Source: Escherichia coli (lineage in GTDB: Bacteria > Pseudomonadota > Gammaproteobacteria > Enterobacterales > Enterobacteriaceae). Taken from it: a stretch of 64,000 bases of DNA. Of the stretch, positions 9,271 through 31,331 are shown one piece after another. Location: assembly GCF_003018255.1 (NCBI RefSeq), contig NZ_CP027440.1; one strand, 5' to 3'. Under the pieces are notes generated by a model. It was not told the origin of the DNA. It worked only from the letters and a program-made list of their open reading frames with translations, and did no database searches. The stretch's first letter is position 1; each line of letters opens with the position of its first letter. A program made the position numbers and the translations under genes.

Positions 9271-9822
9271 ATGAAAAAGAAAACAACACTTAGCGAGGAG
9301 GACCAGGCGCTGTTTCGCCAGTTGATGGCGGGGACTCGCAAGATTAAGCAGGACACGATTGTCCACCGACCGCAGCGTAAAAAAATCAGCGAAGTACCGG
9401 TCAAGCGGTTGATTCAGGAGCAGGCCGATGCCAGCCATTATTTTTCCGATGAGTTTCAGCCATTATTAAATACCGAAGGTCCGGTGAAATATGTTCGCCC
9501 GGATGTCAGCCATTTTGAAGCGAAGAAACTGCGGCGCGGTGATTATTCACCGGAGTTGTTTCTTGATTTGCACGGTCTGACGCAGTTGCAAGCCAAACAG
9601 GAACTGGGGGCGTTGATTGCCGCCTGCCGCCGTGAACATGTGTTTTGTGCCTGCGTGATGCATGGTCACGGGAAGCATATTTTGAAGCAGCAAACGCCGC
9701 TGTGGCTGGCGCAGCATCCACATGTAATGGCATTTCACCAGGCACCAAAAGAGTATGGTGGCGATGCGGCTTTGTTGGTGTTGATTGAAGTGGAAGAGTG
9801 GCTGCCGCCTGAATTGCCCTGA
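9271..9822 (+). CDS. smrB: Smr-domain ribosome rescue endonuclease SmrB (YfcN)
   Basis: 183 aa ORF, recognised sequence. Confidence 0.9.
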
Positions 9823-9937
9823 ATGCTGGCATCGAATGCTGTAGAGGGAAAGTTCGCCTTAGCCATCATATCATAAAACAGACGCCGGAAATGACGACAG
9901 GGCCAGATGGCCCCGTCGACTTGTGAAAATATCGTCA

Positions 9938-10780
9938 CTACAATTCATTCAGTACATACTGGAATCGGCACGTAGAATCAATCGGTTGTCGGCTACTGGT
10001 GTTCACATTTACCACGATATCATGTAGCTGTTTATCGGTTACCGGATGCCGTGTGGGAGAAACCGTTACCGTTGATTTATCGCAACCGTAGGAGGTAAAG
10101 GTTAACAGTTCCGAGACCACGCGGCAGTATGCACCTCTGCTATCAAAAACGCTGCCATCACAGAGTTTGCCATCTTCCATCAGGTAGGTCGAAAGCGTGG
10201 TGGTGATTGTCGAGCCATTGGATTGCAACTGTAACGCCTTATTGTGGCTGACGTAATTCTCACTCCACGAGATGTCATACGACGCGACAGGGATCGTCGG
10301 ACATACTGTGGCATGGTTCGTTGGCCCAGTATATCTCCCGAATCCGGGTTGATCTGTGATCGTATAAAAAGAAGCGAGCCACGGGCAACCATAACTGTCG
10401 GACTGAACGGTTATCTTAAACGTCTCATATGCACACTGAAATGTCGCCGTATTTATCCCAGGACAATTCGAGCTATCAGCATTACCGTAGTCAGTTAAGA
10501 TCAACACTGGCGCTGGTCCCGACCCCGTCCACGAAATAACGCTGGCTTGCTCGTTCTTCCTTATGGCATCGTTGTACACCCCATAGGCCGCCTCGTTGGG
10601 AGTTAACACCGTGACATACAAACCTCCGGTGTTATGAATAGACATTTTCCCCTTCCCATAATAAATCTTCACACTGTCGAAACTCGCGCTGGTGAGTTTA
10701 TCCCCGGCATAGCTCTTTGGAACGCTCGCACTCATCACCAGCAACACCAGGCTCGCAAAAATCATTGTCCATTTTTTCAT
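9938..10780 (-). CDS. yfcO: Fimbrial-type protein YfcO (putative tip adhesin of Yfc fimbriae)
   Basis: ORF 9938-10825; start placed at MKKWTMIFASLVLLVMSA (signal peptide) immediately after yfcP stop; last gene of fimbrial operon. Confidence 0.7.
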   Translation of the reverse strand: MKKWTMIFASLVLLVMSASVPKSYAGDKLTSASFDSVKIYYGKGKMSIHNTGGLYVTVLTPNEAAYGVYNDAIRKNEQASVISWTGSGPAPVLILTDYGNADSSNCPGINTATFQCAYETFKITVQSDSYGCPWLASFYTITDQPGFGRYTGPTNHATVCPTIPVASYDISWSENYVSHNKALQLQSNGSTITTTLSTYLMEDGKLCDGSVFDSRGAYCRVVSELLTFTSYGCDKSTVTVSPTRHPVTDKQLHDIVVNVNTSSRQPIDSTCRFQYVLNEL

Positions 10781-10781
10781 G

Positions 10782-11306
10782 TTAAAAATACTCAAAGGTT
10801 GCCGTCGCCGTAGCGCTGAAATCACCGGACGTCACATCCCGCCCGCCCTTCGCCTGTAGCCAGGCATTAAAATTGAGACTGTTATTGCCCTGGTTTAGCG
10901 GGAACGTGACACCCGTTGTGCTGTTGACTGGCACCGCCGCGCCTGCCGCCGTTTCAATACCAATCCCAGCTCCGGATGCAGAAGATGAGGCGTCAAAGGC
11001 CAGAAATCCGGGCAGTTCGCTATCTTCCGTTCCCGTCAGCGTTACCCTGACGCTAAACAGCGTGGAGCTTTTGCAATCCTTCAATTGAAATACCAACGGT
11101 ACTCGCTCTGACTGCCCGAGGTTCATTAAATCGCTGGCGGCAATGGTGGGAAAGTGCACCTCCGCCAACAGGCTACCGTTGATCACTGGCGTACAGGATT
11201 TACCGAGCAAATTACCGGTAAAGTGCAGGTTGTCGACCGCCGGGGCAGTAACGCTGTACAACAGCATCAGGCTACAGATAAAAACCAACGCACGCTTTTT
11301 CTTCAT
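10782..11306 (-). CDS. yfcP: Fimbrial minor subunit YfcP
   Basis: 174 aa ORF with signal peptide and C-terminal beta-strand motif (...FEYF) typical of pilin subunits. Confidence 0.75.
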   Translation of the reverse strand: MKKKRALVFICSLMLLYSVTAPAVDNLHFTGNLLGKSCTPVINGSLLAEVHFPTIAASDLMNLGQSERVPLVFQLKDCKSSTLFSVRVTLTGTEDSELPGFLAFDASSSASGAGIGIETAAGAAVPVNSTTGVTFPLNQGNNSLNFNAWLQAKGGRDVTSGDFSATATATFEYF

Positions 11307-11773
11307 TGATAATCCACCTGTAACGTGGCCCAGGCTTCAAAGTCTGCCTCAGGCAAATCGACACCGCTCTTTTTGACCGGTACTGCGGTTAACACCGGTA
11401 AGGCCGTTTCATTCACCACCAGTGCCGTATTGAGCTTAAAGCTCTGCCCTGCCTGTTTAAGCCGAATCGCCAGGCCAGAGATATCGGTGCTAACCGCGGC
11501 ATCGTCAAAGTCGCTCTGCGTACCGCTCCAGCTCAATTTCATTTCCATTGATGGGTCGCGAACCGCCGTATCACAGGTAATGGAATACGGCACGGTTTGC
11601 TCATAGTTACTGCCATTAATGTCATCAACAAAAACATCCTGAAAGGTTATTTCAATGGTTTTACCGTTGCTAATAGTGCAGTTAGGTGGCTGCACTAAAT
11701 AGCCGTGAAAAGAGACATTTGAGAGTGCCATCGAGCTAAAGCCCCACAGCATAAGAAGTGAGATCCGTTTCAT
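11303..11773 (-). CDS. yfcQ: Fimbrial minor subunit YfcQ
   Basis: 156 aa ORF with signal peptide, C-terminal ...VDYQ pilin-like terminus; overlapping stops/starts with neighbours. Confidence 0.75.
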   Translation of the reverse strand: MKRISLLMLWGFSSMALSNVSFHGYLVQPPNCTISNGKTIEITFQDVFVDDINGSNYEQTVPYSITCDTAVRDPSMEMKLSWSGTQSDFDDAAVSTDISGLAIRLKQAGQSFKLNTALVVNETALPVLTAVPVKKSGVDLPEADFEAWATLQVDYQ

Positions 11774-12276
11774 TGGTAATCCACCACAATTGTGGCACTG
11801 GCGTTAAATTCCGCTGCCGATAAGGTTGTACCACTCTGTTTCACCGGCACTGCTTCGAGTGCAGGGACGCCCGAGGAAAAATTAAACGGCAACCATGAAC
11901 CAGACGTTAAGTCGAGTGTTGAGTGATCACTACTTTTCTGAACCCGAATACCAAACCCTGAAATACCTGTGCTGATAACTGTTTCACCGTTGATCACAAC
12001 CGTTGTTGCCCGCATCTGTAAACGCAGGTCATCCATTGCCAGGTTGTTACAAACAAGCGAGTAATCAATGGGTTGTTTATAACCTACCCCATCGATCTTA
12101 TTGATGAATACATTACCAAACTCAACCGTCGCACCATTAACCGTGCAAGGAGGAGGGGCATCAACGAGCACTCGTAAACTCAAATTTACTGATTTACTCC
12201 CTGCAACTGCAAAGTCGCTACCAATACAACACATCAGTAACCATGTTCCCGCCCAGACTGAACAAGATCTTTTCAT
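11770..12276 (-). CDS. yfcR: Fimbrial minor subunit YfcR
   Basis: 168 aa ORF with signal peptide, C-terminal ...VDYQ pilin-like terminus. Confidence 0.75.
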   Translation of the reverse strand: MKRSCSVWAGTWLLMCCIGSDFAVAGSKSVNLSLRVLVDAPPPCTVNGATVEFGNVFINKIDGVGYKQPIDYSLVCNNLAMDDLRLQMRATTVVINGETVISTGISGFGIRVQKSSDHSTLDLTSGSWLPFNFSSGVPALEAVPVKQSGTTLSAAEFNASATIVVDYQ

Positions 12277-12292
12277 ACTTACTTCCCCGTCA

Positions 12293-13042
12293 TTAACCTT
12301 TGCGGCTCAGCTCTTCATCAACCTGACAACTGTTGCCGCTACAGGTGAAAAAGAGTGGCATCCGTGCGCCATAGTCGTTGACATAGGTCAGCACCGGCAC
12401 GCTAGCCATCTTCACCTTGAGCGGTGCGGAGGTTTTTGGCGACATCACTATCGGCGAGAAACCGTCTGCCGGATTGCCATTTTTTTGCGCGCTGGCATTA
12501 CTGAAAATGACGTAATACGGAGTAGGGTTATTGACGGTAAATTCCTGACCGTTACGGGTTAAGGTCACTTTATGCTGCCATGGGTTTTGCATGCTAGCTT
12601 TTTCCAGGGCTTTAGGTCGCCAGAAAAGTTTGATGCGTGTCTGCAGCGCAATTTGTAACGTATTGGCTTTGTTCGATTTCGGCGGAATTTCACGCACATT
12701 GAAATAAAATATCGATTCACGATCGGCAGGCAATTTATGGATATCTGGCAATCCCTGAATTTTCACCTGACCATTCATCATTGCATCAATGCGCTGTACG
12801 GGGGGCAATACTGCCAGCGGCGAACTAATCTTGACGCCCTTTTCATCTTCGATCCAGCTTTGTGCCAGATAAGGCTGTTTCGGGTCGTTATTACGCAGCG
12901 TGACGCTGATGGATTTATCGCTTTCATTAAAAATCAGGCGAGTACGATCGGGCGTTACTGACGCCAGAGCAGAAAAACTTACCGTTGCAGCCAGTAACGA
13001 CAGTACCGTTGCCAATGTTTTGACAGAGAGATGTTTAGTCAT
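12293..13042 (-). CDS. yfcS: Periplasmic fimbrial chaperone (PapD-like) YfcS
   Basis: 249 aa ORF with signal peptide and PapD-family features. Confidence 0.85.
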   Translation of the reverse strand: MTKHLSVKTLATVLSLLAATVSFSALASVTPDRTRLIFNESDKSISVTLRNNDPKQPYLAQSWIEDEKGVKISSPLAVLPPVQRIDAMMNGQVKIQGLPDIHKLPADRESIFYFNVREIPPKSNKANTLQIALQTRIKLFWRPKALEKASMQNPWQHKVTLTRNGQEFTVNNPTPYYVIFSNASAQKNGNPADGFSPIVMSPKTSAPLKVKMASVPVLTYVNDYGARMPLFFTCSGNSCQVDEELSRKG

Positions 13043-13061
13043 GGATCATTCCTTAATCACG

Positions 13062-15701
13062 TTATTGGTTCGATGAAACAGACATCGGCGGTTCCATTGG
13101 TGTCACCTGTTGTGTCTGCTCCTGAATTACAGGTTGAATATCATGCGTTATGACGGGAGCACTTCCCCCTTTTTGCTGGCATGGCAACAACAAGCCATTG
13201 AACAGGTCATTCGGTAACGGATCTGGCAGGCTGATATCGCAGTGAGATTCTCCCTCCCAGAAAACGGTCATATGTTCACCCGGCTTAACGCCTGCAAGAT
13301 AAACATTACCTTCGTCATCAACCAGCCCAACTTGTTGTTGATTATCGTTTTTCACTTCCGCCCCAAATGGCGGATGGCTGCCATCCTGCAAGCGCAGCAC
13401 TACCATCGCCTTCTCACCGCTGATCACCGCAAATTTACGGTAGCCAATAGCGCCTTCCGTCAGCGTTGCCTGGACCACCGATTGGGTAGCTTCGGCGTTT
13501 TCCGGTAGTTTGTTCAAATCGATATAAGCCTGGTTACGGTAGTAATCATTAACATCTGCCACCACCGCTTTCCCGAACATGTTGGTATAAACGGCGGAAC
13601 CATTACCTTCGACCGGCACATTAGCAACGCCATCGGCGTCGATTAGCAGACGTGTGCCTCCCATATTTTGCGTACGATGCAACGCCCCGCCGTGAGCAGT
13701 CAGTGTTACACCGCCCTGTAAGGAGACCCCCGCAGATGTGTATTGCCCCTCATGGTAGTTTGCACTCAGGTCAACTTTTGCCAGCGTACCGTCATGACTG
13801 TAATAACCATCAAGACTGGTGTGATTTTCACTGGTTCCGGCGCTCAACGTATAGTGGCTAGCGTCATCGATGCGGTGATACAAACTCGCCTGGCTGCTGT
13901 CGGCACCACTGCCATAATTGCCGTTGTAACTGATGGTGCTGTTGTCACCCCATGGCAAACTCAAGGACAGATAAACACCTTTGTCGGCACTTTTATCATA
14001 TTCGTAGCGATAACCGGTGAGAGAAACGCTCAGGTTGCGAAGACTTCCTAAATTGAAATAATGAGAAAGCATCATGTTGTAGTTGGTCTGATCCTCGCGA
14101 TCCCAATAGGTATGGTGAGAATAATTGAGATAGACCGAAACGCGCGCATCCCTAAAGTTCTGGTTGTAAGTGACCGTGTACATTTCCTTGTCGTTACCCG
14201 TGCGCGCACGGTCGGTGTCGTTCGCATCCAGATACTCACTCATGGTCATGTAGTTTTTTTCAGAGAAGCGATATCCGGCAAACGTCACCCGACTGTTGAG
14301 TTCATCGAAATCTTTGGCATAGCTGACGCGATAAGAGTTGCCGTCCAGCGTTTTGTTGCCATACACGCTGTTATCGTCGAGTTGAACACGAGAGTGAGTG
14401 ACATCAAACGCTAGCGCTCCGAACAGCGCGAGGTCACGACCGAGGCCTAACGCTGCCGACTGGTAGTTTTCATCGGCCAATGCCCCGCCGTAGAGCGACC
14501 AGCCATTCGCAATCCCCCATGACGCCTCACCGCCCGAGAAGAAGCTGCCTGCAACCTGATGGTCCCAGTTTTGTGGACGCCCCATTGTCACTTTGTAACG
14601 CACCTGACCGGGGCGGGTCAGAAACGGCATGGACGCCGTGCTGACGTCATATTCCTGTACCTGACCGTTTTGTTCTTCAATGCGGACATGCAGCGTGCCA
14701 GATACGGAATCGCCAATATCCTGAATGCGGAATGGACCTGCGGGCACCTGGGTTTCGTAAATGACACGGCCCATTTGGGTTACGGTCACTTTAGCGGTAG
14801 TGTGTGCAACGCCGGAAATATCGGGTGCGTAGCCGCGCATGTTTGGCGGTAACATTTGATCATCGGTACTGATGCTGCCGCCAATGTAACTGAAGCCATC
14901 AAAAATATCGGAGTTGAGATAATCTTCACCCAGCGAAAGTTTGGCTTTTAATGACGGCAAGGCGCGCCAGGCGTAGTAACGGCTCCACTCCCAGTTTTTT
15001 TGCGTACCGCTATCATCAGTGTCGCCGTCATCGTTACTGCGGGTATGTTGGTAATCGCTCTGCCAGTCGGCTCGTAAGCGCCACGGCCCCACGTTAACGC
15101 CGACCGTACCATTACCGCTGATGTCGTTAGTGTCATCCCCCCCATTTTCATGTCGGGTTTGTGCGTTGATACTGTAATCGGCAATAAGCCCAGGAATCCC
15201 CTCATCCCAACGCGAAGGTGGGTCCCAGTCATCGTCAGTGTATTCGAGATATGCCTGTGGCACAGAAACTAAGAGCGCAGATTGACTTAAATCGCCCTTA
15301 ATTTCCATACCTCCTATTTGGTCAGTTTTCAGACATTGTCCATCATGACCCCATTGCAAACTCTTCGCAAAATCATCTTTGAAGCCAAACTGGGCTATCA
15401 GTTCAGGTGGTAAGCAGGCATATGATTTATTCGGATCGTTTTCAGCTACATACCAATAGATATCGTATTCATCAGGTAATGGGTGATTATTTACATGAAC
15501 ACGTAAATTGTATTTCCCTGGTTCAACATACCCTTTTTGAGAAAAACGCCCCAGATCAATTTTGGTATTTCCTTTTAACTCCAGAAATCGAGCATCAAAT
15601 TGAATGGTATCATCTGCCAGTACATTAAAAGGACTCCCGGAAATTGCCAGAGCAATCCACCATGAAAGCCCCCGTAAACGAAGAAAAGAATGTTCAGGCA
15701 T
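13062..15701 (-). CDS. yfcU: Outer-membrane fimbrial usher, intact (879 aa)
   Basis: Single uninterrupted 879 aa ORF with usher-family composition and C-terminal domain; in K-12 the equivalent is split (yfcT/yfcU pseudogene). Confidence 0.85.
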   Translation of the reverse strand: MPEHSFLRLRGLSWWIALAISGSPFNVLADDTIQFDARFLELKGNTKIDLGRFSQKGYVEPGKYNLRVHVNNHPLPDEYDIYWYVAENDPNKSYACLPPELIAQFGFKDDFAKSLQWGHDGQCLKTDQIGGMEIKGDLSQSALLVSVPQAYLEYTDDDWDPPSRWDEGIPGLIADYSINAQTRHENGGDDTNDISGNGTVGVNVGPWRLRADWQSDYQHTRSNDDGDTDDSGTQKNWEWSRYYAWRALPSLKAKLSLGEDYLNSDIFDGFSYIGGSISTDDQMLPPNMRGYAPDISGVAHTTAKVTVTQMGRVIYETQVPAGPFRIQDIGDSVSGTLHVRIEEQNGQVQEYDVSTASMPFLTRPGQVRYKVTMGRPQNWDHQVAGSFFSGGEASWGIANGWSLYGGALADENYQSAALGLGRDLALFGALAFDVTHSRVQLDDNSVYGNKTLDGNSYRVSYAKDFDELNSRVTFAGYRFSEKNYMTMSEYLDANDTDRARTGNDKEMYTVTYNQNFRDARVSVYLNYSHHTYWDREDQTNYNMMLSHYFNLGSLRNLSVSLTGYRYEYDKSADKGVYLSLSLPWGDNSTISYNGNYGSGADSSQASLYHRIDDASHYTLSAGTSENHTSLDGYYSHDGTLAKVDLSANYHEGQYTSAGVSLQGGVTLTAHGGALHRTQNMGGTRLLIDADGVANVPVEGNGSAVYTNMFGKAVVADVNDYYRNQAYIDLNKLPENAEATQSVVQATLTEGAIGYRKFAVISGEKAMVVLRLQDGSHPPFGAEVKNDNQQQVGLVDDEGNVYLAGVKPGEHMTVFWEGESHCDISLPDPLPNDLFNGLLLPCQQKGGSAPVITHDIQPVIQEQTQQVTPMEPPMSVSSNQ

Positions 15702-15786
15702 CTACGTATCCATCCATGATTATTATAATTTAGTTATCTTTTATTTATAAACCCCATAACATTGCAGTTATGGGGGAACAGCATAA

Positions 15787-16353
15787 TTAGAGATATGTAA
15801 TCTGGAACGTCGTTAGCGTTTCAAACGGCGCTGGGGTTGGTGTTACCGCTGCAGTTTCACCTACTAACCAGGCTTTAAAGTTCAACGTTTGTTTCTGTTT
15901 GCCTTTTCCTGTTGAACTGTCCATCGCGATGTCCTGATCGATGCCTGCCCCCAGGTCATAACCAGTACCACGTTGGTCGCCAATCACCAGACTTACATTT
16001 GGAATTTCAGTTCCATTATCCATGTTAGACAGGGAATAGTTTTTTGAGTTGCCGGAGTACGGATTACCAGTGAATGTCGTGGTCATTGTCGTTTCAGTAT
16101 TGAAATTACAATCCTGTAAACGAATCTGGAAATCTTTAGGTGTGGTAGTCTTGCCACCGGTTAAAGAACCTGTACCAATGCTGCCCATATCCACTTCCAG
16201 TTTATGATCGTCAGGAACAATCGAGCACGGAGAGTCTTCAATTGTGCCGTAAAATCTCACTGTACCGTTGTTACCTGCGGCAACGACTGATGCTGAAGTC
16301 AGCGCCCCCATGAGCATTGCCGTGGCAACTGCTGCTTTTACAAACTTACTCAT
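15787..16353 (-). CDS. yfcV: Major fimbrial subunit YfcV
   Basis: 188 aa ORF with signal peptide, Cys pair, C-terminal ...FQITYL; first gene of operon. Confidence 0.8.
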   Translation of the reverse strand: MSKFVKAAVATAMLMGALTSASVVAAGNNGTVRFYGTIEDSPCSIVPDDHKLEVDMGSIGTGSLTGGKTTTPKDFQIRLQDCNFNTETTMTTTFTGNPYSGNSKNYSLSNMDNGTEIPNVSLVIGDQRGTGYDLGAGIDQDIAMDSSTGKGKQKQTLNFKAWLVGETAAVTPTPAPFETLTTFQITYL

Positions 16354-16959
16354 TATTTGTCCTTAAATCATAAATAATTAGAATATAAGCCAACTGAAAT
16401 ATTGACGCAGAGCTTCTTCAATTTTTACAGCGACTTTTAACCAGCCAATGAACAGATTTTCAGCTCCTGAAAAAACAGGTTCCTTGATATAATATTCTTT
16501 GGCGTGCCGAACATATTGATATTTTAATATGACTGACGCAATTTAGATTTTCTAACATTCAAAGTTAGAAATGCTTAATTAATAGGCAGGAATAATAATT
16601 ACTGAAATTTTTCATCTCAATCATGAAGAATAAGTTCAAAAAAACGGCAAATGCAAAAACCCAGTGAATAAATTAAAGTCAAAAACAATCACATGGCAAT
16701 GACTATCTTGTGATATTAATTTCGCAACGATATAATATTAAAACACTATAATTAATATAAAATCAAGACCCAATTATATTTTTCACTTTAGTCATTATTT
16801 ACCTAAAAATGCTTCCAGAAAAATAATTTATGAATAAAAGTAAATTCTCTTTCAATATGTAAATTTTTACAAATAAAAGCGTCATGCCGTATAAAATAAA
16901 GACCATTCGATCACAAGCGGATCATTGTTAGTACAATAAGATTGAATAAATTCAACATT
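16354..16959. promoter_or_regulatory. AT-rich upstream region of yfc fimbrial operon (promoter / likely nucleoid-protein-bound region)
   Basis: About 600 bp with no credible ORF and visibly very high A+T content directly upstream of yfcV. Confidence 0.4.
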
Positions 16960-17003
16960 GCCAGAAAAAATAAAGGCCCGATAGCTTACGCCAGCGGGCC
17001 TTG
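16960..17003 (-). terminator. Putative intrinsic terminator downstream of sixA
   Basis: GC stem GGCCCG/CGGGCC with 13-nt loop; A-run on plus strand (= U-run on minus transcript) following the stem. Confidence 0.45.
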
Positions 17004-17013
17004 TGCATGCGTA

Positions 17014-17499
17014 TTAAATCGCCTTTGCCATCTTCAAATTACATGGGCTCATCTGCCAGTTAAATGTGCCGTTTCCGCTTTCATCAAGCGTTACGCTGGC
17101 AATGGCCGAGGTGGTAAACATAGGCGGCGTTTCGCCCGGACATAACTCAGCAACCAGATACCCGACTAAGGGTAAGTGGGAGATCACCAGTACCGAAGCA
17201 ACACCTTCATTGGTCAACGCCTGCAAATAGGCACTGACCAGACCAACATCGCCGCAGGGCGTTAACTCCGGCAGAACTTCTGCACTGGAAGGCAGGTTCA
17301 GACAATCCCCTACTTCTTCAAGTGTTTGCTCGGCTCGCAGGAACGGGCTCACCAGAACGCGTTCGATTTCCACTTTTTGACCTTTCAGCCAGTTCGCCAT
17401 CAGGCGAGATTCGTCACAACCGTTAGTGGTCAGAGGACGAACCGAATCACTGGCGGCATCGAGGGCTGCGTCGCCGTGACGCATGATAAAAACTTGCAT
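17014..17499 (-). CDS. sixA: Phosphohistidine phosphatase SixA
   Basis: 161 aa ORF, RHG motif at N-terminus (MQVFIMRHGDA...). Confidence 0.93.
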   Translation of the reverse strand: MQVFIMRHGDAALDAASDSVRPLTTNGCDESRLMANWLKGQKVEIERVLVSPFLRAEQTLEEVGDCLNLPSSAEVLPELTPCGDVGLVSAYLQALTNEGVASVLVISHLPLVGYLVAELCPGETPPMFTTSAIASVTLDESGNGTFNWQMSPCNLKMAKAI

Positions 17500-17701: not shown

Positions 17702-19846
17702 TTATTGCAGGTCAGTTGCAGTTGTTTTCCAAAAACTTTCCCCACGCTTGCTCATCTCGACTAAACGCTCGCAAGGGGTAAAACGGGAACCATACTGCGT
17801 GGCCAGTCGTTGCATTATTGCAACCACTTCACCCGCACCGAGAGAATCGATGTAGCGGAACGGACCACCGAGAAATGGCGGAAAACCAATGCCAAATACC
17901 GCGCCAATATCTCCGTCACGCACGCTACGGATAACCTGCTCGTCCAGACAACGTACTGCTTCATTCAGCATCAACATCACACACCGTTCAGCTACCTGCG
18001 GTGCGGAGAGTCGCCCCTGCCCTTGTGTGCCAATGAGCGGGTAAATGGCGGGATCGACCTGTTTTTTGCTTTTACGCCCTTTCTGACCATAAAGATAGAA
18101 ACCCCGGCCATTTTTTCTGCCTTTGCGATCGTCGTTCAAAATTGAAGAAACAACATTTGCAGGCGCGCTAAAACGTTCTCCATAAGCGGCTTCCAGTACA
18201 GGAATAATTTTAGTCCCGGTGTCGATTCCTACCTCATCCAAAAGTTGGATTGGGCCTACCGGAAAACCAAATTTCACCAGCGCGGTATCAATGTGCTCTA
18301 CCCGTTCACCTTCGGTCAACATGCGGATAGCTTCATTAATGTAAGGCGCTAAGATGCGATTGACGTAAAACCCGGCTTTGTCACGCACGACAATTGGCGT
18401 TTTGCCCTGTTTTTTCGCCAGTTTTACTGTGGTGGCGATGGTTTGCGCCGATGTACCGGCATGGGGAATAATTTCTACCAACGGCATTTTTTCCACCGGA
18501 CTGAAGAAATGCAGGCCAATAACTTGCTCAGGTCGCGCGGCGTGAGCGGCGATATCGCCAATCGGTAAAGATGACGTGTTCGAAGCAAAGATGGTATGAG
18601 CGGCGCAATTTTGCTCAACTTCCGCCACCATTTGTTGTTTTAATTCGAGATTTTCAAACACCGCTTCAATAATCAGATCGCGATGGGCAAAGCCGCAATA
18701 GTCCGTCGTTCCGGAGATTAATGCCAGCTGTCTGTCACGTTCGCTGGCTTTGAGATGACGACGGCGAACTTTGCCCTCCAGCTGATCCCAACTGTACTTC
18801 AGCGCATGATTTATGCCCTGCGGGTTGATATCTTTAATTCTGACCGGAAGCCCCGCTTTACAAGCAGTGACATAAGCAATACCGCCGCCCATCAAGCCAC
18901 CACCTAAAATTCCCACGCTGTTTAATGGCGCAGGCGGCGCATCACTGCCAGGATCTTTCTTCACGTCCGTACTGGCAAAAAAGATACTACGCAGCGCCTG
19001 CGATTGCGGCGTCATCACCAGTTCGCCAAAAGCACGGGCTTCAGCGTCATAGCCGCCACTGGTGCCCTGCGCTAATCCCGTTTCGACAACCTCCAGGATG
19101 CGTTCTGTCGCCGGATAGTTACCTTGAGTTTTGTGTTCTGTTTTCTTACCGACCATTTTGAACAGCAGCGCACGACCTAACGGCCCCGCCAGAATACGCT
19201 CGCGTACAGGTAGAGGGCGTGAAGATGGGCGATCCTGCTTTGCCAGCTCAACAGCGGCTTCCAGTAAAATGGATTGCGGAACGACGTCATCCACCAGCCC
19301 CAGCTTTAATGCCTGTTTCGCCCGAAGTTGTTTTCCAGTGAGGATCATCTCCAATGCTGTGCTGACACCTATCAGGCGCGGTAAACGCTGGGTGCCGCCT
19401 GAACCGGGTAATAATCCAAGTTGTACTTCAGGCAAACCGAGCACCGTTTTAGGATCGTCAGTACACATGCGACCGTGGCACGCCAGCGCCAACTCCAGCC
19501 CACCGCCCAGGCAAGCGCCATGAATAGCCGCGATAACCGGAACGGGCAAAGCATGAATCTCCGCCATCAACTGTTGGCCCTGCCGCGCCAGTGCTTCCGC
19601 TTCTTGCGCCGTTTTGCAGTTGGCGATCATGTTGATGTCTGCGCCAGCAATGAAGTTGTCTGGTTTCGCGGAGATAAACACCACGCCGCGCAACTCTTTG
19701 TTTTCACGGAGTTGCTTAATAATGGCGCGCACCTGCGAGGCAAACTCCGCCTTCAGGGTATTCATTTTCTCACCCGGTACGTCGATGGTGATAACAGCAA
19801 TGTTGTCCAGACGGACATTAAGGGTAAACGCTGATGCCATTTCCAT
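17702..19846 (-). CDS. fadJ: Anaerobic fatty-acid oxidation complex alpha subunit (enoyl-CoA hydratase / 3-hydroxyacyl-CoA dehydrogenase)
   Basis: 714 aa ORF, recognised FadJ. Confidence 0.95.
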
Positions 19847-21156
19847 TATTCCGCCTCCACAACCATTGCCGCGCCAAGCCCACCCGCAGCACAGGCGGTC
19901 ACTAAACCAAATCCACCGCCGCGACGGCGAAGTTCATGCAATGTCTGGGTAATCATCCGCGCGCCGGTCGCCGCGAAGGGATGCCCGTAAGCAATCGAAC
20001 CGCCAAGCACGTTAAATTTGCTATCGTCCATTTCGCCAGTGGCATGTGCACGCCCCAGTACATCACGAGCAAAACGTTCGCTACCCAGCAACTGAATATT
20101 CGCCAGTGTCTGAGCTGCAAAGGCTTCGTGCATATCGAGCAATGTCAGATCGCTCATTGTCAAACCGGCACGTTCCAGCGCCAGCGGCGTTGACCAGGCC
20201 GGACCGAGCAACATGTCCTGCCAGACATCTATCGCAGTAAATGCGTAACTGCGCAGATACCCCAGCGGTACCAGCCCTAATTCTTTCGCCCGCGATTCGG
20301 TCATCAGGATCACCGCCGCTGCGCCATCGGTCAGCGGCGTACTGTTTGCTGCCGTTACCGTCCCGTGTTTACGATCAAACGCCGGACGCAACTTTGCGTA
20401 ATCAGCAAGCGAGGAATTACCGCGAATATTGTTGTCTTCGGCAAGCGGTTGTTTATAAGGAGGGATAAAGGCAGTCATCACCTCTTCTTTGAGTTTACCG
20501 TCTGACCACGCCTGAGCGGCTCGCTGATGCGAACGGTGCGCTAATGCATCTTGCTGTTCGCGAGTAATACCGTAGGTTTTCGCCATTTGTTCAGCGGTGT
20601 CGCCCATCCGCAAGCCAGTAGAGTATTCCGCCACTGCCGGAGGCACCGGCATTAAGTCGCGCAAACGCAGGCGAGAGAAGAGTTTCAGGCGCTGGCTCAT
20701 GGTTCGAGCTTTGTTGACATCAACCAGCACGCGCGCCAGTTTTTTACTGACGCCAATTGGCAATACGGAAGAGGAATCGGCCCCACCGGCAATCCCCGCG
20801 CGAATAGTTCCCGCCATCAGGCTTTCTGCGACGTTTGCAATCGCCTGGAAACTGGTAGCGCAAGCGCGGCTGACGCTGTAAGCATCGGTATGCACATTCA
20901 TTCCGGTACCGAGAACAATTTCACGCGCAATGTTGGGGGCTTCAGGCATTTGTACGACCTGACCAAAAACCAGTTGTTCAATCACTTCGGCGGGGATCTC
21001 GCTGCGTGCCAGCAGTTCGCCTACCACCATCTTCCCCAAATCAACAGCAGGAATGCCATGAAAAGCCGTCGCCTGGCGGGCAAAAGGCGTACGTAAACCG
21101 CTAACAATGGCGATACGATCGCCCTGGCGGGTAACCAGCGGTAAAACCTGACCCAT
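19846..21156 (-). CDS. fadI: 3-ketoacyl-CoA thiolase FadI
   Basis: 436 aa ORF, thiolase motifs, stop/start overlap with fadJ. Confidence 0.95.
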
Positions 21157-21183
21157 AACACTCCCCTGTAAAATAATAAATAA

Positions 21184-21199
21184 AGTGGTCTGACCTGAT
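21184..21199. promoter_or_regulatory. FadR-box-like site AGTGGTCTGACCTGAT upstream of fadIJ
   Basis: Sequence matches FadR operator consensus (TGGTCNGACCTG core) about 30 bp upstream of fadI start. Confidence 0.5.
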
Positions 21200-21274
21200 C
21201 ATAGTCTTAACCATTTTTTTACATTTAGCCAAGTGGAGAAAAGGGAAAGTGGGAGCTATGACACAGAGAGAAAA

Positions 21275-21320
21275 GTAGAAGAGAAAAGAAAACGCCCCTG
21301 CCAGCAACTGACAGGGGCGT
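21275..21320 (-). terminator. Putative intrinsic terminator downstream of yfcZ
   Basis: Stem GCCCCTG/CAGGGGC with loop, followed on the minus transcript by a U-rich run. Confidence 0.45.
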
Positions 21321-21336
21321 ATGTACCCGAGAGGAA

Positions 21337-21621
21337 TTAACGCAGACCCAGCTGGAAGATCAGCATTTCAGCTTCGCAGGCAAAAGTGAAATCGATATCC
21401 AGGCGCACACCGTCAGACTCTTCAGTGAAAGTCGGGGTGATTTTGCACGGTTCGGATTCCACGCTACGGGCTTTTTCAGTCAGCGCCGCCAGCGTTTGTT
21501 CTGCTTCTGCGCGGTTTGCAAACACACGGCTGTAAGACGCGGTGCAGTCGGAGTTGTCCATAATGGTGCCAACATCCATACAGCAGCAAACCGGGGTTTC
21601 ATCAGCACTACATTTACTCAT
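21337..21621 (-). CDS. yfcZ: UPF0381 protein YfcZ
   Basis: ORF 21337-21645; start placed at internal Met giving 94 aa MSKCSADETPVCCCMDVG... Confidence 0.85.
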   Translation of the reverse strand: MSKCSADETPVCCCMDVGTIMDNSDCTASYSRVFANRAEAEQTLAALTEKARSVESEPCKITPTFTEESDGVRLDIDFTFACEAEMLIFQLGLR

Positions 21622-25451: not shown

Positions 25452-25526
25452 GTCCTCTTAGTTAAATGGATATAACGAGCCCCTCCTAAGGGCTAATTGC
25501 AGGTTCGATTCCTGCAGGGGACACCA
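25452..25526 (+). tRNA. argW: tRNA-Arg (anticodon CCU)
   Basis: 75-nt sequence GTCCTCTTAGTTAAATGGATATAACGAGCCCCTCCTAAGGGCTAATTGCAGGTTCGATTCCTGCAGGGGACACCA; cloverleaf with CCT anticodon loop, T-loop GGTTCGATTCC. Confidence 0.95.
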
Positions 25527-25735
25527 GATACCCTTCAAACCAAATCTACCTTCACCCCGTAAAAGATGGGTTTGGCAGCACACTTGCCCTATATCTACTC
25601 ATTTTTACTGCAACAGGTTGAAATCTCAGCACTGTCAGAAAGCGCTGATGACTAAACAGCCCTGGGCCGGGCGATGTAACCATCATACAGAATCCTGATA
25701 GCGAAATATGGCGTGACTCGATACTTCACTCTGCA

Positions 25736-25888
25736 ATGCATTCCTTGATGAATTCGCAGGCCCGTGATACACGGGACACGTGGCTGAATGACGACAATGT
25801 CCTGGAAATCAGCGAACCGCGTATCCGGAGTACATTTGAGCGACTGTACCAGAACATGAATGAGGCGTTTGGATTAGGTGATTATTAG
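25736..25888 (+). other. Short unassigned ORF (50 aa) / possible gene remnant adjacent to argW
   Basis: Open frame with internal ATG 25736 ending TAG 25886-25888; frame is open back to 25652 and an out-of-frame ATG at 25648 precedes it, suggesting a degraded or frameshifted gene; below the 60 aa cutoff of the ORF track. Confidence 0.2.
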
Positions 25889-25967
25889 CAGGGGTAAGCA
25901 TTTTTGTATTATTATTTTCCGGTTGAGGGATATGGAGATATCGACAACAACCGGAAAAAGTTTACGT

Positions 25968-27215
25968 CTATATTGCTGAAGGTACAGGCGTTTCCATAAC
26001 TATTTGCTCGCGTTTTTTACTCAGGAAGAAAATGCCAAATAGCAACATCAGGCAGACAATACCCGAAATTGCGAAGAAAACTGTCTGGTAGCCTGCGTGG
26101 TCAAAGAGTATCCCAGTCGGCGTTGAAAGCAGCACAATCCCAAGCGAACTGGCAATTTGAAAACCAATCAGAAAGATCGTCGACGACAGGCGCTTATCAA
26201 AGTTTGCCACGCTGTATTTGAAGACGGATATGACACAAAGTGGAACCTCAATGGCATGTAACAGCTTCACTAATGAAATAATCCAGGGGTTAACGAACAG
26301 CGCGCAGGAAAGGATACGCAACGCCATAATCACAACACCGATAAGTAATGCATTTTTTGGCCCTACCCGATTCACAAAGAAAGGAATAATCGCCATGCAC
26401 AGCGCTTCGAGTACCACCTGGAATGAGTTGAGATAACCATACAGGCGCGTTCCTACATCGTGTGATTCGAATAAACCTGCATAAAAGACAGGAAAGAGTT
26501 GTTGATCAAAAATGTTATAGAAAGACCACGTCCCCACAATAAATATGACAAAAACCCAGAAGTTTCGATCCTTGAAAACTGCGATAAAATCCTCTTTTTT
26601 TACCCCTCCCGCATCCGCCGCTATGCACTGGTGATCCTTATCTTTAAAACGCATGTTGATCATCATAAATACAGCGCCAAATAGCGAGACCAACCAGAAG
26701 TTGATATGGGGACTGATACTAAAAAATATACCAGCAAAGAACGCGCCAATAGCATAGCCAAAAGATCCCCAGGCGCGCGCTGTTCCATATTCGAAATGAA
26801 AATTTCGCGCCATTTTTTCGGTGAAGCTGTCAAGCAAACCGCATCCCGCCAGATACCCCAGGCCAAAAAAGAGCGCCCCCAGAATTAGACCTACAGAAAA
26901 ATTGCTTTGCAGTAACGGTTCATAAACGTAAATCATAAACGGTCCGGTCAAGACCAGAATGAAACTCATACACCAGATGAGCGGTTTCTTCAGACCGAGT
27001 TTATCCTGAACGATGCCGTAGAACATCATAAATAGAATGCTGGTAAACTGGTTGACCGAATAAAGTGTACCTAATTCCGTCCCTGTTAATCCTAGATGTC
27101 CTTTCAGCCAAATAGCGTATAACGACCACCACAGCGACCAGGAAATAAAAAAGAGAAATGAGTAACTGGATGCAAAACGATAGTACGCATTTCTGAATGG
27201 AATATTCAGTGCCAT
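25968..27215 (-). CDS. cscB: Sucrose:H+ symporter (MFS, oligosaccharide/H+ symporter family)
   Basis: 415 aa ORF with 12-TM composition, recognised CscB sequence. Confidence 0.93.
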   Translation of the reverse strand: MALNIPFRNAYYRFASSYSFLFFISWSLWWSLYAIWLKGHLGLTGTELGTLYSVNQFTSILFMMFYGIVQDKLGLKKPLIWCMSFILVLTGPFMIYVYEPLLQSNFSVGLILGALFFGLGYLAGCGLLDSFTEKMARNFHFEYGTARAWGSFGYAIGAFFAGIFFSISPHINFWLVSLFGAVFMMINMRFKDKDHQCIAADAGGVKKEDFIAVFKDRNFWVFVIFIVGTWSFYNIFDQQLFPVFYAGLFESHDVGTRLYGYLNSFQVVLEALCMAIIPFFVNRVGPKNALLIGVVIMALRILSCALFVNPWIISLVKLLHAIEVPLCVISVFKYSVANFDKRLSSTIFLIGFQIASSLGIVLLSTPTGILFDHAGYQTVFFAISGIVCLMLLFGIFFLSKKREQIVMETPVPSAI

Positions 27216-27286
27216 AATTACCTGCCTGTCGTTAAAAAATTCATGTCCTATTTAGAGATAAGAGCGGCCTCGCCGTTTACTTCTCA

Positions 27287-28201
27287 CTATTCCAGTTCTT
27301 GTCGACATGGCAGCGCTGTCATCGCCCCTTTCGCCGTTACTGCAAGCGCTCCGCAACGTTGAGCGAGATCGATAATTCGTCGCATTTCTCTTTCATCTGT
27401 AGATAATCCCGTAGAGGACAGACCTGTGAGTAACCCGGCAACGAACGCATCTCCCGCCCCCGTGCTATCGACACAATTCACAGACATTCCAGCAAAATGG
27501 TGAACTTGTCCTCGATAACAGACCACCACCCCTTCTGCACCTTTAGTCACCAACAGCATGGCGATCTCATACTCTTTTGCCAGGGCGCATATATCCCAAT
27601 CGTTCTGTGTTTTTCCACTGATAAGTCGCCATTCTTCTTCCGAGAGCTTGACGACATCCGCCAGTTGTAGCGCCTGCCGCAAACACAAGCGGAGCAAATG
27701 CTCGTCTTGCCATAGATCTTCACGAATATTGGGATCGAAGCTGACAAAACCTCCGGCATGCCGGATCGCCGTCATCGCAGTAAATGCGCTGGTACGCGAA
27801 GGCTCGGCAGACAACGCAATTGAACAGAGATGTAACCATTCGCCATGTCGCCAGCAGGGCAAGTCTGTCGTCTCTAAAAAAAGATCGGCACTGGGGCGGA
27901 CCATAAACGTAAATGAACGTTCTCCTTGATCGTTCAGATCGACAAGCACCGTGGATGTCCGGTGCCATTCATCTTGCTTCAGATACGTGATATCGACACC
28001 CTCAGTTAGCAGCGTTCTTTGCATTAACGCACCAAAAGGATCATCACCGACCCGACCTATAAACCCACTTGTTCCGCCTAATCTGGCGATTCCCACCGCA
28101 ACGTTAGCTGGCGCGCCGCCAGGACAAGGTAGTAGCCGCCCGTCTGATTCTGGCAAGAGATCTACGACCGCATCCCCTAAAACCCATACTTTGGCTGACA
28201 T
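27287..28201 (-). CDS. cscK: Fructokinase (ROK/pfkB-family sugar kinase of csc regulon)
   Basis: 304 aa ORF with pfkB-family motifs (GG..N, DSTGAGDAF). Confidence 0.93.
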   Translation of the reverse strand: MSAKVWVLGDAVVDLLPESDGRLLPCPGGAPANVAVGIARLGGTSGFIGRVGDDPFGALMQRTLLTEGVDITYLKQDEWHRTSTVLVDLNDQGERSFTFMVRPSADLFLETTDLPCWRHGEWLHLCSIALSAEPSRTSAFTAMTAIRHAGGFVSFDPNIREDLWQDEHLLRLCLRQALQLADVVKLSEEEWRLISGKTQNDWDICALAKEYEIAMLLVTKGAEGVVVCYRGQVHHFAGMSVNCVDSTGAGDAFVAGLLTGLSSTGLSTDEREMRRIIDLAQRCGALAVTAKGAMTALPCRQELE

Positions 28202-28306
28202 TTTTTTCCCTTAAATTCATCTGACTTACGCATAGTGATAAACCTCTTTTTCGCAAAATCGTCATGGATTTACTAAAACATGCATATTCGATCACAAAAC
28301 GTCATA

Positions 28307-28318
28307 GTTAACGTTAAC
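28307..28318. promoter_or_regulatory. Perfect 12-bp palindrome GTTAACGTTAAC, candidate CscR operator (site 1)
   Basis: Read directly in the cscK-cscA divergent intergenic region; identical copy 64 bp downstream. Confidence 0.5.
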
Positions 28319-28370
28319 ATTTGTGATATTCATCGCATTTATGAAAGTAAGGGACTTTATTTTTATAAAA

Positions 28371-28382
28371 GTTAACGTTAAC
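28371..28382. promoter_or_regulatory. Perfect 12-bp palindrome GTTAACGTTAAC, candidate CscR operator (site 2)
   Basis: Identical to site 1, about 35 bp upstream of cscA start. Confidence 0.5.
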
Positions 28383-28416
28383 AATTCACCCAATTTGCTT
28401 AACCAGGATGATAAAA

Positions 28417-29850
28417 ATGACGCAATCTCGATTACATGCGGCGCAAAACGCACTAGCAAAACTTCACGAGCGCCGAGGTAACACTTTCTATCCCCATTTT
28501 CACCTCGCGCCTCCCGCCGGGTGGATGAACGATCCAAACGGCCTAATCTGGTTTAACGATCGTTATCACGCGTTTTATCAACATCACCCGATGAGCGAAC
28601 ACTGGGGGCCAATGCACTGGGGACATGCCACCAGCGACGATATGATCCACTGGCAGCATGAGCCTATTGCGCTAGCGCCAGGAGACGAGAATGACAAAGA
28701 CGGGTGTTTTTCAGGTAGTGCTGTCGATGACAATGGTGTCCTCTCACTTATCTACACCGGACACGTCTGGCTCGATGGTGCAGGTAATGACGATGCAATT
28801 CGCGAAGTACAATGTCTGGCTACCAGTCGGGATGGTATTCATTTCGAGAAACAGGGTGTGATCCTCACTCCACCAGAAGGCATCATGCACTTCCGCGATC
28901 CTAAAGTGTGGCGTGAAGCCGACACATGGTGGATGGTAGTCGGGGCGAAAGATCCAGGCAACACGGGGCAGATCCTGCTTTATCGCGGCAGTTCATTGCG
29001 TGAATGGACTTTCGATCGCGTACTGGCCCACGCTGATGCGGGTGAAAGCTATATGTGGGAATGTCCGGACTTTTTCAGCCTTGGCGATCAGCATTATCTG
29101 ATGTTTTCCCCGCAGGGAATGAATGCCGAGGGATACAGTTACCGAAATCGCTTTCAAAGTGGCGTAATACCCGGAATGTGGTCGCCAGGACGACTTTTTG
29201 CACAATCCGGGCATTTTACTGAACTTGATAGCGGGCATGACTTTTATGCACCACAAAGCTTTTTAGCGAAGGATGGTCGGCGTATTGTTATCGGCTGGAT
29301 GGATATGTGGGAATCGCCAATGCCCTCAAAACGTGAAGGCTGGGCAGGCTGCATGACGCTGGCGCGCGAGCTATCAGAGAGCAATGGCAAACTTCTACAA
29401 CGCCCGGTACACGAAGCTGAGTCGTTACGCCAGCAGCATCAATCTATCTCTCCCCGCACAATCAGCAATAAATATGTTTTGCAGGAAAACGCGCAAGCAG
29501 TTGAGATTCAGCTGCAGTGGGCGTTGAAGAACAGTGATGCCGAACATTACGGATTACAGCTCGGCACTGGAATGCGGCTGTATATTGATAACCAATCTGA
29601 GCGACTTGTTTTGTGGCGGTATTACCCACACGAGAATTTAGATGGCTACCGTAGTATTCCCCTCCCGCAGGGTGACATGCTCGCCCTAAGGATATTTATC
29701 GATACATCATCCGTGGAAGTATTTATTAACGACGGGGAGGCGGTGATGAGTAGCCGAATATATCCGCAGCCAGAAGAACGGGAACTGTCGCTCTATGCCT
29801 CCCACGGAGTGGCTGTGCTGCAACATGGAGCACTCTGGCAACTGGGTTAA
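28417..29850 (+). CDS. cscA: Sucrose-6-phosphate hydrolase / invertase (GH32)
   Basis: ORF 28408-29850; start placed at MTQSRLHAAQN; GH32 N-terminal motif WMNDPNG present. Confidence 0.93.
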   Translation: MTQSRLHAAQNALAKLHERRGNTFYPHFHLAPPAGWMNDPNGLIWFNDRYHAFYQHHPMSEHWGPMHWGHATSDDMIHWQHEPIALAPGDENDKDGCFSGSAVDDNGVLSLIYTGHVWLDGAGNDDAIREVQCLATSRDGIHFEKQGVILTPPEGIMHFRDPKVWREADTWWMVVGAKDPGNTGQILLYRGSSLREWTFDRVLAHADAGESYMWECPDFFSLGDQHYLMFSPQGMNAEGYSYRNRFQSGVIPGMWSPGRLFAQSGHFTELDSGHDFYAPQSFLAKDGRRIVIGWMDMWESPMPSKREGWAGCMTLARELSESNGKLLQRPVHEAESLRQQHQSISPRTISNKYVLQENAQAVEIQLQWALKNSDAEHYGLQLGTGMRLYIDNQSERLVLWRYYPHENLDGYRSIPLPQGDMLALRIFIDTSSVEVFINDGEAVMSSRIYPQPEERELSLYASHGVAVLQHGALWQLG

Positions 29851-29857
29851 CATAATA

Positions 29858-31314: not shown

Positions 31315-31331
31315 GCGCAAAGAGACGTACT

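Follow-up and report, generated by a model that had tools for sequence, protein, structure and literature searches.

An intact usher gene in a divergent cassette at the Escherichia coli yfc chaperone-usher locus

The window, a stretch of 64,000 nucleotides of E. coli DNA, includes a seven-gene chaperone-usher operon on the minus strand in the order yfcV-U-S-R-Q-P-O, with sixA on one side and smrB (yfcN) on the other, as in K-12. The features of this region are as follows:

9823..17017, no strand assigned: extent of a divergent allelic cassette relative to K-12 (blastn against K-12)
9938..10780, minus strand: yfcO-type (StfH/YfcO, DUF2544) putative tip adhesin, 280 aa (Pfam DUF2544, E=4e-76)
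10782..11306, minus strand: yfcP-type minor subunit, 174 aa (Pfam Fimbrial; top NCBIfam relative StfG, under the equivalog cutoff)
11303..11773, minus strand: yfcQ-type minor subunit, 156 aa (Pfam Fimbrial; top NCBIfam relative StfF, under the equivalog cutoff)
11770..12276, minus strand: yfcR-type minor subunit of 168 aa; the tip module starts with this gene (Pfam Fimbrial)
12293..13042, minus strand: yfcS-type periplasmic chaperone, 249 aa (Pfam PapD_N and PapD_C)
13062..15701, minus strand: yfcU-type outer-membrane usher, intact (ORF, Pfam, NCBIfam, PapC alignment, dN/dS)
13971..13973, minus strand: TAT (Tyr577), counterpart of the K-12 amber codon 579 (TAG) (pairwise alignment with K-12 yfcU)
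15752..15775, minus strand: 9-bp GC-rich stem-loop just past the yfcV stop codon, followed by a U/A-rich tract (RNA fold centroid)
15787..16353, minus strand: yfcV-type major fimbrial subunit, 188 aa (Pfam Fimbrial PF00419)
16354..17013, minus strand: AT-rich regulatory region upstream of yfcV, 660 bp, 29.4% GC (GC content, sequence)

The ORF listing gives the usher gene as one minus-strand ORF of 879 aa starting with ATG, and the reverse-complement translation of 13062-15701 contains no internal stop codon, in agreement with the original prediction, which named no strand, of a single uninterrupted ORF; the frameshift or premature stop that would have contradicted it was not found on re-translation. 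By simple arithmetic, the chance of 879 sense codons in succession is about (61/64)^879, or about 5e-19. Strain 104 has identical usher DNA, annotated in RefSeq with the same start and stop (WP_001114071.1). The plus-strand frame of the same segment contains many stop codons.

The usher has a full set of domains in Pfam: PapC_N (PF13954), the N-terminal periplasmic domain which recruits chaperone-subunit complexes, at residues 34-180 (profile 1-146 of 146, E=3.6e-36); the Usher domain (PF00577), a beta-barrel with an internal plug, at full length at residues 197-757 (profile 3-549 of 549, E=8e-188); and PapC_C (PF13953), the C-terminal periplasmic CTD1/CTD2, at residues 767-824. The NCBIfam model NF011812 is matched end to end (protein 1-879, profile 1-881 of 881) with 1783.6 bits against a cutoff of 972, and the second-best NCBIfam model scores 1104 bits, under its cutoff of 1371. 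These three domains and the adjoining PapD-like chaperone and pilins identify the predicted product as an usher of the PapC/FimD family.

Comparison with solved structures of the P pilus (7lhg, 6cd2, 3fip) extends this assignment. Usher residues 34-842 align with residues 2-806 of mature PapC (7lhg_C, E=2.8e-217). All indels are small, and the two Cys pairs line up, including the C-terminal HC...LLPC cysteines. The alignment is continuous over the barrel and plug structures 3fip and 2vqi, and the CTD aligns with 3l48 and 2kt6. Unlike PapC, the usher has an additional conserved Q/P-rich tail of about 37 aa past the last PapC-aligned residue. The YfcS chaperone aligns with PapD (E=4e-59) and keeps the counterparts of Arg8 (DRTR) and Lys112 (RIKLF). 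As these residues and the usher Cys pairs are conserved, the same assembly mechanism as for Pap is expected. In one search the usher was closer to PapC (727 bits) than to the gamma-clade FimD (266-268 bits), and yfc is placed in the pi clade in the literature (Nuccio and Baumler scheme), suggesting that the operon is pi-clade and Pap-like. The pap operon itself occupies a separate locus, and its PapI/B regulators, PapH terminator and PapG adhesin are absent from the operon in the window.

The six genes around the usher gene are likewise uninterrupted, so that the complete parts list that had been claimed (chaperone, major subunit and four further subunit or adhesin genes) is present. Four PF00419 pilins and one DUF2544 adhesin share a strand with yfcS, and each pilin carries a signal peptide, a Cys pair and an aromatic residue in the penultimate position; YfcV, for example, has a signal peptide, the Cys43/Cys82 pair and a C-terminal ...ITYL. 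For yfcR, the start annotated in RefSeq for strain 104 was dropped, as the 14-codon N-terminal extension holds a stop codon here (SNP at 12309); the ATG at 12276 was used, which gives a normal signal peptide and a length equal to that in K-12. Over all seven genes dN/dS is 0.05-0.18 despite saturated synonymous divergence, and purifying selection acts on all of them. The dN/dS of the usher (0.05-0.07) and the conserved PapC/PapD features support a working machine, and it seems reasonable to regard the usher as potentially functional.

In K-12 MG1655, yfcU is annotated as a pseudogene (b4661), as the original prediction held; the further claim that the K-12 gene is split did not stand. The alignment that was proposed for locating the lesion places it at codon 579, where TAC is changed to the amber codon TAG. 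The 2,646-bp K-12 pseudogene otherwise forms one reading frame with this lone TAG, which rules out a frameshift or split gene, and both strain 4/2-1 and BL21 have TAC at this codon. To call the two genes corresponding says too much: they occupy the same locus but belong to different allelic cassettes, with 75.8% nucleotide and 80.4% amino acid identity between the ushers and 43-56% identity between the tip proteins.

A survey of 5,426 complete E. coli genomes indicates how common intact ushers are. The amber allele occurs in 363 genomes, the sampled rows of which are mostly K-12 laboratory derivatives, and the Tyr (TAC) allele in at least 2,685. In 5,385 genomes (about 99%) an usher covered to at least 80% is present at this locus, and it is intact in all seven non-K-12 representatives inspected (a commensal strain, BL21, O157:H7, 536, 19AR0646, CRE1540 and 15.TR.026). 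The usher of the commensal representative is one nucleotide from that of K-12. In accordance with this, Yfc was described as core-associated and as the sole core cluster intact in every genome examined (Wurpel 2013, PMC3559732). Because the usher is this widely carried, is intact in the non-K-12 representatives and was found intact in the earlier study, intactness fails to distinguish the strain, and the idea that it sets this strain apart from K-12 has to be abandoned. The intact usher is the ordinary and already known state of E. coli, from which the K-12 lineage departs by a single nonsense SNP.

In organisation, the operon matches that of K-12 in its site, in the order and orientation of its seven genes, in domain architectures and in the NCBIfam model of the usher; the differences are the amber codon, the distant sequences and the non-aligning regulatory region. 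By blastn against K-12, the two flanks are 95.1% and 96.7% identical and the cassette interior is 68-75% identical or unalignable. Amino acid identity to K-12 is 83% for the chaperone, 67% for YfcV, 48-56% for YfcR/Q/P and 43% for YfcO. The subunits and adhesin are homologous to those of K-12, but it is doubtful that they confer the same receptor or serotype. Usher alleles are at most 76% identical at the nucleotide level with dS above 2, and dS in the flank (sixA) is about 0.1.

The two halves of the operon resemble different alleles. The yfcV/U/S module is 93-95% identical at the amino acid level to the type of 19AR0646 and 15.TR.026 (93% for YfcV against the 19AR0646 type) and 66-80% identical to the O157 type. 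The tip module (yfcR/Q/P/O) is 69-83% identical to that of O157, and CRE1540 and 15.TR.026 have 84-90% identity to it in YfcR/Q/P and 72-73% in YfcO. The resemblance is to the 19AR0646 type up to yfcS and, exactly from yfcR on, to the O157 type. As judged from these identities, the operon is a mosaic of yfcV/U/S of one type and yfcR/Q/P/O of another, with the breakpoint at the yfcS/yfcR junction. The yfc genes have been reported to be highly diverse, with trees that are incongruent with MLST (PMC4850163). The O157:H7 cluster ECs3216-ECs3222 and that of E. coli W have the same locus and organisation and are the nearest general type to the tip module in the window, but the yfcV/U/S type of ECs3216-ECs3222 differs from that in the window. 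This site in E. coli W and O157 (sixA-yfcN) has been described as carrying a different pi-type cluster under a separate name (Archer 2011, PMC3032704).

Variation is strongest in the N-terminal half of YfcO, which is hypervariable among alleles (25-58% identity); the C-terminal half is conserved (62-95%). The N-terminal half of YfcO in the window is at most 58% identical to every other sampled allele and 27% identical to K-12. An adhesin role is assigned to YfcO because of its family naming (the RefSeq product is 'StfH/YfcO family fimbrial adhesin') and this pattern of a variable N-terminus and a conserved C-terminus, and yfcO is said to contribute to APEC adherence in a paper citing the original work (Li 2016, via PMC8069529). 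A sequence search of the PDB with YfcO found no relative. An AlphaFold model built from a seven-sequence alignment is of low confidence (mean pLDDT 63.6; 71-91 in the N-domain and below 55 in the C-domain), and a Foldseek search of the PDB with this model returned generic Ig-like/Fab matches only (TM 0.3 or less) and no specific structural relative.

The regulatory region upstream of yfcV is 94-97% identical to that of the 19AR0646 type and does not align with those of K-12, O157 and 536 (31-57% identity). At its distal end, the sixA terminator hairpin forms an inverted repeat at 16973-17002. A search of this region for repeats, among them an invertible switch like that of fim, gave weak AT-rich matches and the sixA terminator only. 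Consensus scans for sigma-70 promoters and intrinsic terminators over 9700-17100 are uninformative, because the counts equal those of shuffled controls. Yfc has been termed 'functional but cryptic' (PMC3559732), and papers citing Korea 2010 credit that study with the finding of H-NS silencing of Yfc. They also attribute to it the observation that Yfc of K-12 is adhesive in spite of the stop codon. As far as these citations go, a cryptic, H-NS-silenced state would fit the AT-richness of the promoter region, which has a GC content of 29%.

The hairpin just past yfcV also occurs in the K-12, O157, 536 and 19AR0646 alleles, whose stem substitutions are compensatory. It was unflagged by the consensus terminator scan, and folding of the whole intergenic region gave a non-significant z-score (-1.19), so that only this local 9-bp hairpin is supported, by its conservation across alleles. 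It is probably an intercistronic attenuator or an mRNA-stabilising hairpin.

The Salmonella Stf fimbriae (stfACDEFGH) provide the top NCBIfam named relatives of every gene (StfA, StfD, StfE, StfF, StfG and the StfH/YfcO family). The equivalog cutoffs are missed for StfA (139.7 vs 267 bits), StfD (335.9 vs 447), StfE (159.2 vs 264), StfF (184.2 vs 253) and StfG (156.7 vs 253); the Stf proteins are homologues and not equivalents of the proteins in the window.

Taken together, it is highly probable that the gene encodes the usher of a complete pi-clade chaperone-usher operon at the yfc locus, which is normally intact and selectively maintained, and which here is a divergent mosaic cassette that is probably silent in the laboratory. 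By homology with Pap and Fim, YfcS, in the periplasm, would take up each subunit by donor-strand complementation, and the 879-aa usher would form a plugged beta-barrel pore, the N-terminal domain of which recruits chaperone-subunit complexes while its C-terminal domains hold the growing fibre. A tip made of the YfcO adhesin together with YfcP/Q/R would come first and the YfcV rod after, and donor-strand exchange would polymerise and extrude them. The intact usher reflects what is normal for E. coli, a state kept up by selection. The operon is one of a number of strongly divergent allelic cassettes at this site, and its AT-rich, H-NS-type promoter region suggests expression only in particular niches.

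A restoration or gain of an intact usher in this strain, rescuing an otherwise defective E. coli operon, might be imagined from the pseudogene annotation in MG1655 and the intact ORF here. This has a negligible probability and is refuted by the genome census: the amber codon is largely confined to K-12 laboratory derivatives among the sampled rows of the 363 genomes, the Tyr allele is widespread, all other allele classes inspected are intact, as are the yfc loci in all genomes of Wurpel 2013, and at 76% nucleotide identity the allele in the window is no derivative of the K-12 allele. A sequence-intact relic which is never expressed and is heading for decay is also very improbable. Crypticity of Yfc under laboratory conditions, the extremely AT-rich promoter region and a promoter scan with nothing above chance are all compatible with it, but purifying selection on all seven genes at saturated synonymous divergence, retention of the locus in about 99% of genomes and compensatory changes in the conserved hairpin argue for maintenance. 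In addition, secondary accounts in the literature describe phenotypes of yfcO in APEC, both in vivo and in adhesion, and yfcV is reported to be differentially expressed in STEC.

That a separate pi-type fimbria displaced yfc by horizontal transfer, so that the operon is not Yfc proper, would account for the low identities to K-12 in the usher (76% at the nucleotide level) and tip proteins, a dS above 2 as compared with about 0.1 for sixA, the unalignable regulatory region and the separate name given by Archer 2011. However, every allele sits at one and the same insertion point, with the same number of genes in the same order, and the same curated model for the subfamily is matched by the usher along its whole length. 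Conserved features across alleles are the C-terminal tail, the hairpin after yfcV and the C-domain of YfcO. Modules reassort among alleles, which therefore behave as one recombining gene pool. Under the scheme of Wurpel 2013, which combines locus and usher phylogeny, the alleles count as one type: the operon lies at the Yfc location, and the NF011812 score would group its usher with YfcU. Displacement is quite improbable, and whether to call the operon Yfc is for the most part a matter of nomenclature.

Yfc is a known core-associated and usually intact operon, and this exact usher protein is already in RefSeq. As K-12 pseudogenes are often lineage-specific accidents, a gene that is intact where the K-12 copy is broken is what should be expected by default and no discovery. 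Of more use is a by-product, the record of a locus with several deeply divergent, reassorting cassettes, in which the presumed receptor-binding half of the adhesin is the most variable part. This diversity bears on the use of yfcV and yfcO as PCR or virulence markers and on the host tropism of poultry-associated ExPEC. A more speculative and rather unlikely extension is that yfc is an ancient recombining polymorphism whose modules reassort at a yfcS/yfcR hotspot, and that a private YfcO receptor-binding domain, whose distinct specificity would aid host or tissue tropism, brought the chimeric cassette to fixation in an ExPEC lineage enriched in poultry. Copies of the cassette with at least 99% identity occur in 77 of the 5,426 genomes, many of them from poultry.

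The yfc usher of the window is encoded by a single uninterrupted ORF, as the original prediction held; its coordinates also stand, and the strand, which had not been given, is the minus strand. The reverse-complement translation of this interval has no internal stop, and the plus-strand frame has many.

13062-15701, minus strand: usher gene yfcU, 879 aa, start codon ATG
13971-13973, minus strand: TAT (Tyr577), counterpart of K-12 codon 579 in the alignment with K-12 yfcU
usher residues 34-180: PapC_N (Pfam)
usher residues 197-757: Usher domain (Pfam; profile positions 3-549 of 549, E=8e-188)
usher residues 767-824: PapC_C (Pfam)

The absence of internal stops, the three full domains and an end-to-end match to the curated usher subfamily model NCBIfam NF011812 (1783.6 bits versus a cutoff of 972) confirm the intact ORF and rule out a chance origin. 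The exact protein is already held in RefSeq (WP_001114071.1). Usher residues 34-842 align to residues 2-806 of mature PapC (7lhg_C; E=2.8e-217) with small indels only, and both cysteine pairs, N-terminal and C-terminal, line up. Past the last PapC-aligned residue, the window usher continues for about 37 aa in a Q/P-rich C-terminal tail (...IQPVIQEQTQQVTPMEPPMSVSSNQ; residues about 843-879, window 13062-13175). This tail lacks a PapC counterpart and is well kept in all five allele classes compared.

The usher lies in a cluster of seven genes on one strand (assignments from Pfam and RefSeq annotation), placed between sixA-fadJ-fadI and smrB-prmB-aroC as in K-12 MG1655. The operon is of an already known kind, Yfc / pi-clade chaperone-usher fimbriae.

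15787-16353, minus strand: yfcV, Fimbrial domain
15752-15775, minus strand: GC-rich 9-bp hairpin immediately 3' of the yfcV stop codon; a U/A-rich tract comes next
12293-13042, minus strand: yfcS, PapD_N and PapD_C
11770-12276, minus strand: yfcR, Fimbrial domain
11303-11773, minus strand: yfcQ, Fimbrial domain
10782-11306, minus strand: yfcP, Fimbrial domain
9938-10780, minus strand: yfcO, DUF2544 / StfH-YfcO adhesin family

None of the seven genes is interrupted, in agreement with the predicted full set of chaperone, usher, major subunit and four further subunit/adhesin genes. YfcS aligns to PapD (E=4e-59) and retains residues matching Arg8 and Lys112, with which PapD anchors subunits; each of the four pilins has a signal peptide and the typical Cys pair, with Tyr or Phe as its next-to-last residue. 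By homology to Pap and Fim, fimbriae would be assembled by the mechanism of those systems. The parts list is complete and the operon probably functional. In RefSeq, yfcR of strains 104, CRE1540 and 15.TR.026 has a 14-codon N-terminal extension overlapping yfcS (window 12277-12318; 11384-11425 in the strain 104 locus). Because a SNP at 12309 in the window places a stop codon inside this extension, translation probably begins at the ATG at 12276, a start that provides the product with a normal signal peptide.

The K-12 gene had been regarded as a pseudogene split into yfcT and yfcU. The K-12 usher is indeed broken, and alignment places the lesion at one codon: K-12 yfcU (b4661; 2,646 bp) has one reading frame with one stop, TAG at codon 579, and differs by 1 nt over the whole gene from that of strain 4/2-1, which has TAC (Tyr) and is annotated as intact YfcU. 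The yfcT/yfcU split is therefore a nonsense SNP; a frameshift is ruled out by the single frame and the lone TAG. BL21(DE3) also has TAC at this codon.

The lesion was counted in 5,426 complete E. coli genomes using 55-mers that carried the SNP at their midpoint; any 28-nt megablast word then has to include it. The TAG 55-mer matched in 363 genomes and the TAC 55-mer in at least 2,685. The TAG rows sampled were mostly K-12 laboratory derivatives (such as MG1655, W3110, BW25113, DH1, HB101 and MC4100); a few were isolates recorded with a different origin. At lower stringency, an usher with query coverage of 80% or more was present at the yfc locus in 5,385 of the genomes, and the usher was intact in every non-K-12 representative opened (4/2-1, BL21, O157:H7 2159, 536, 19AR0646, CRE1540 and 15.TR.026). 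Yfc has been described as core-associated and 'functional but cryptic', and yfc as the sole cluster intact in all genomes examined (Wurpel et al., 2013; PMC3559732). From these counts, representatives and that report, an intact usher is the E. coli norm and K-12 the exception; the contrast with K-12, originally put forward as the point of interest of this strain, comes from a nonsense mutation in the K-12 lineage, not from anything particular to the window strain. According to a 2024 review, conservation of YfcU is limited to highly virulent pathotypes (PMC11014939), a restriction which the census does not support. Among the usher search matches, IS1 was seen inside the usher itself in other genomes.

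Nor is the window usher simply the gene corresponding to that of K-12, as had been assumed: it belongs to a different allelic cassette, with 75.8% nt and 80.4% aa identity to K-12 yfcU. The divergent block spans about 9823-17017, and its flanks are 95.1% and 96.7% identical to K-12 at the nt level. Protein identity to K-12 is 100% for the flanking SixA, 83% for YfcS, 80% for YfcU, 67% for YfcV, 56% for YfcP, 49-51% for YfcR, 48% for YfcQ and 43% for YfcO. Usher dS against the K-12, O157 and 536 alleles is saturated (>2; sixA, about 0.1), and the usher has a dN/dS of 0.05-0.07, with no yfc gene above 0.18, a pattern pointing to old alleles held by purifying selection.

A gene-by-gene matrix and a 150-bp sliding comparison reveal a sharp type switch at the yfcS/yfcR junction, at about 12276. 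In the promoter region and in yfcV, yfcU and yfcS, upstream of the junction, the window follows the 19AR0646 / 15.TR.026 type (93-95% aa and 85-99% nt identity). From yfcR to yfcO, downstream of the junction, it follows the O157 / CRE1540 / 15.TR.026 tip family (69-90% aa), and the 19AR0646 tip is of an unrelated type (44-57% aa).

CRE1540: K-12-type yfcV/U (98% aa to K-12; yfcS 92%), window-like tip (R/Q/P 86-88% aa)
19AR0646: window-like yfcV/U/S, different tip
15.TR.026: window-like yfcV/U/S, window-like tip

Judged from these sequence types, the yfcV/U/S and tip modules reassort between strains. Different pi-type clusters at the yfc site were reported earlier for E. coli W and O157 versus K-12 (PMC3032704), and yfc genes show high nucleotide diversity with trees incongruent with MLST (PMC4850163). 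In 19AR0646, the IS3-family element IS1397 lies between yfcO and smrB (11871-13219 of that locus), at one edge of the variable cassette.

Ushers with ≥99% identity to the window allele occur in 77 genomes; another 556 have one at about 92%, and the remaining genomes one at 74-77%. The tip module occurs at ≥99% in 77 and at 80-90% in 1,352, and 77 genomes match the complete cassette at 99.9-100% identity. Among the best 60 of these 77 cassette matches, about 35 are from avian hosts (chicken, turkey, other), including APEC O78:H4 strains, and about 17 are of human origin (hand count of the host column). The window and strain 104 differ at 122 positions over 18.6 kb, mostly in fadJ/fadI (window 19000-21500) and with 3 in the 7.2-kb yfc cassette. 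This clustering suggests that the two strains, closely related elsewhere, differ by a recombination tract local to the fad genes.

The N-terminal half of YfcO is hypervariable (25-58% identity between alleles) and the C-terminal half conserved (62-95%), as would be expected if YfcO were a tip adhesin of two domains, the variable one being a putative receptor-binding domain. Seven of its eight cysteines are invariant across alleles. No PDB relative of the StfH/YfcO (DUF2544) family was found by sequence. The AlphaFold model has a moderately confident all-beta N-domain (pLDDT 71-91) and a poor C-domain, and Foldseek gave no specific match to it. The remaining interest lies in the modular, deeply divergent polymorphism at the yfc locus and in the predicted lineage-private receptor-binding domain of YfcO, a picture already documented in part by published work.

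Upstream of yfcV lies a 660-bp region of 29.4% GC that has no alignment with K-12 and no convincing invertible-element repeats; consensus promoter and terminator scans gave background level only. Passages in papers citing Korea 2010 describe yfc-type operons as cryptic and H-NS-repressed, and the AT-rich promoter region is consistent with such a state. The hairpin at 15752-15775 is kept, with compensatory stem changes, in the window, K-12, O157, 536 and 19AR0646 classes, unlike the remainder of the yfcV-yfcU spacer, which has diverged; it is likely an intercistronic attenuator or mRNA stabiliser. In the pap and fim operons, comparable intercistronic hairpins determine how much major subunit is made relative to usher.

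Elsewhere in the window (25452-32663), a csc-type sucrose utilisation cluster lies between a tRNA gene and dsdA. Judged against the K-12 gene order, the cluster has apparently replaced dsdC/dsdX, at a site (argW-dsdCXA) known as a variable island.

25452-25526: tRNA-Arg(CCT)
25968-27215, minus strand: MFS oligosaccharide transporter
27287-28201, minus strand: fructokinase
28408-29850, plus strand: sucrose hydrolase
29858-31051, minus strand: LacI-family regulator
31332-32663, plus strand: dsdA, D-serine ammonia-lyase
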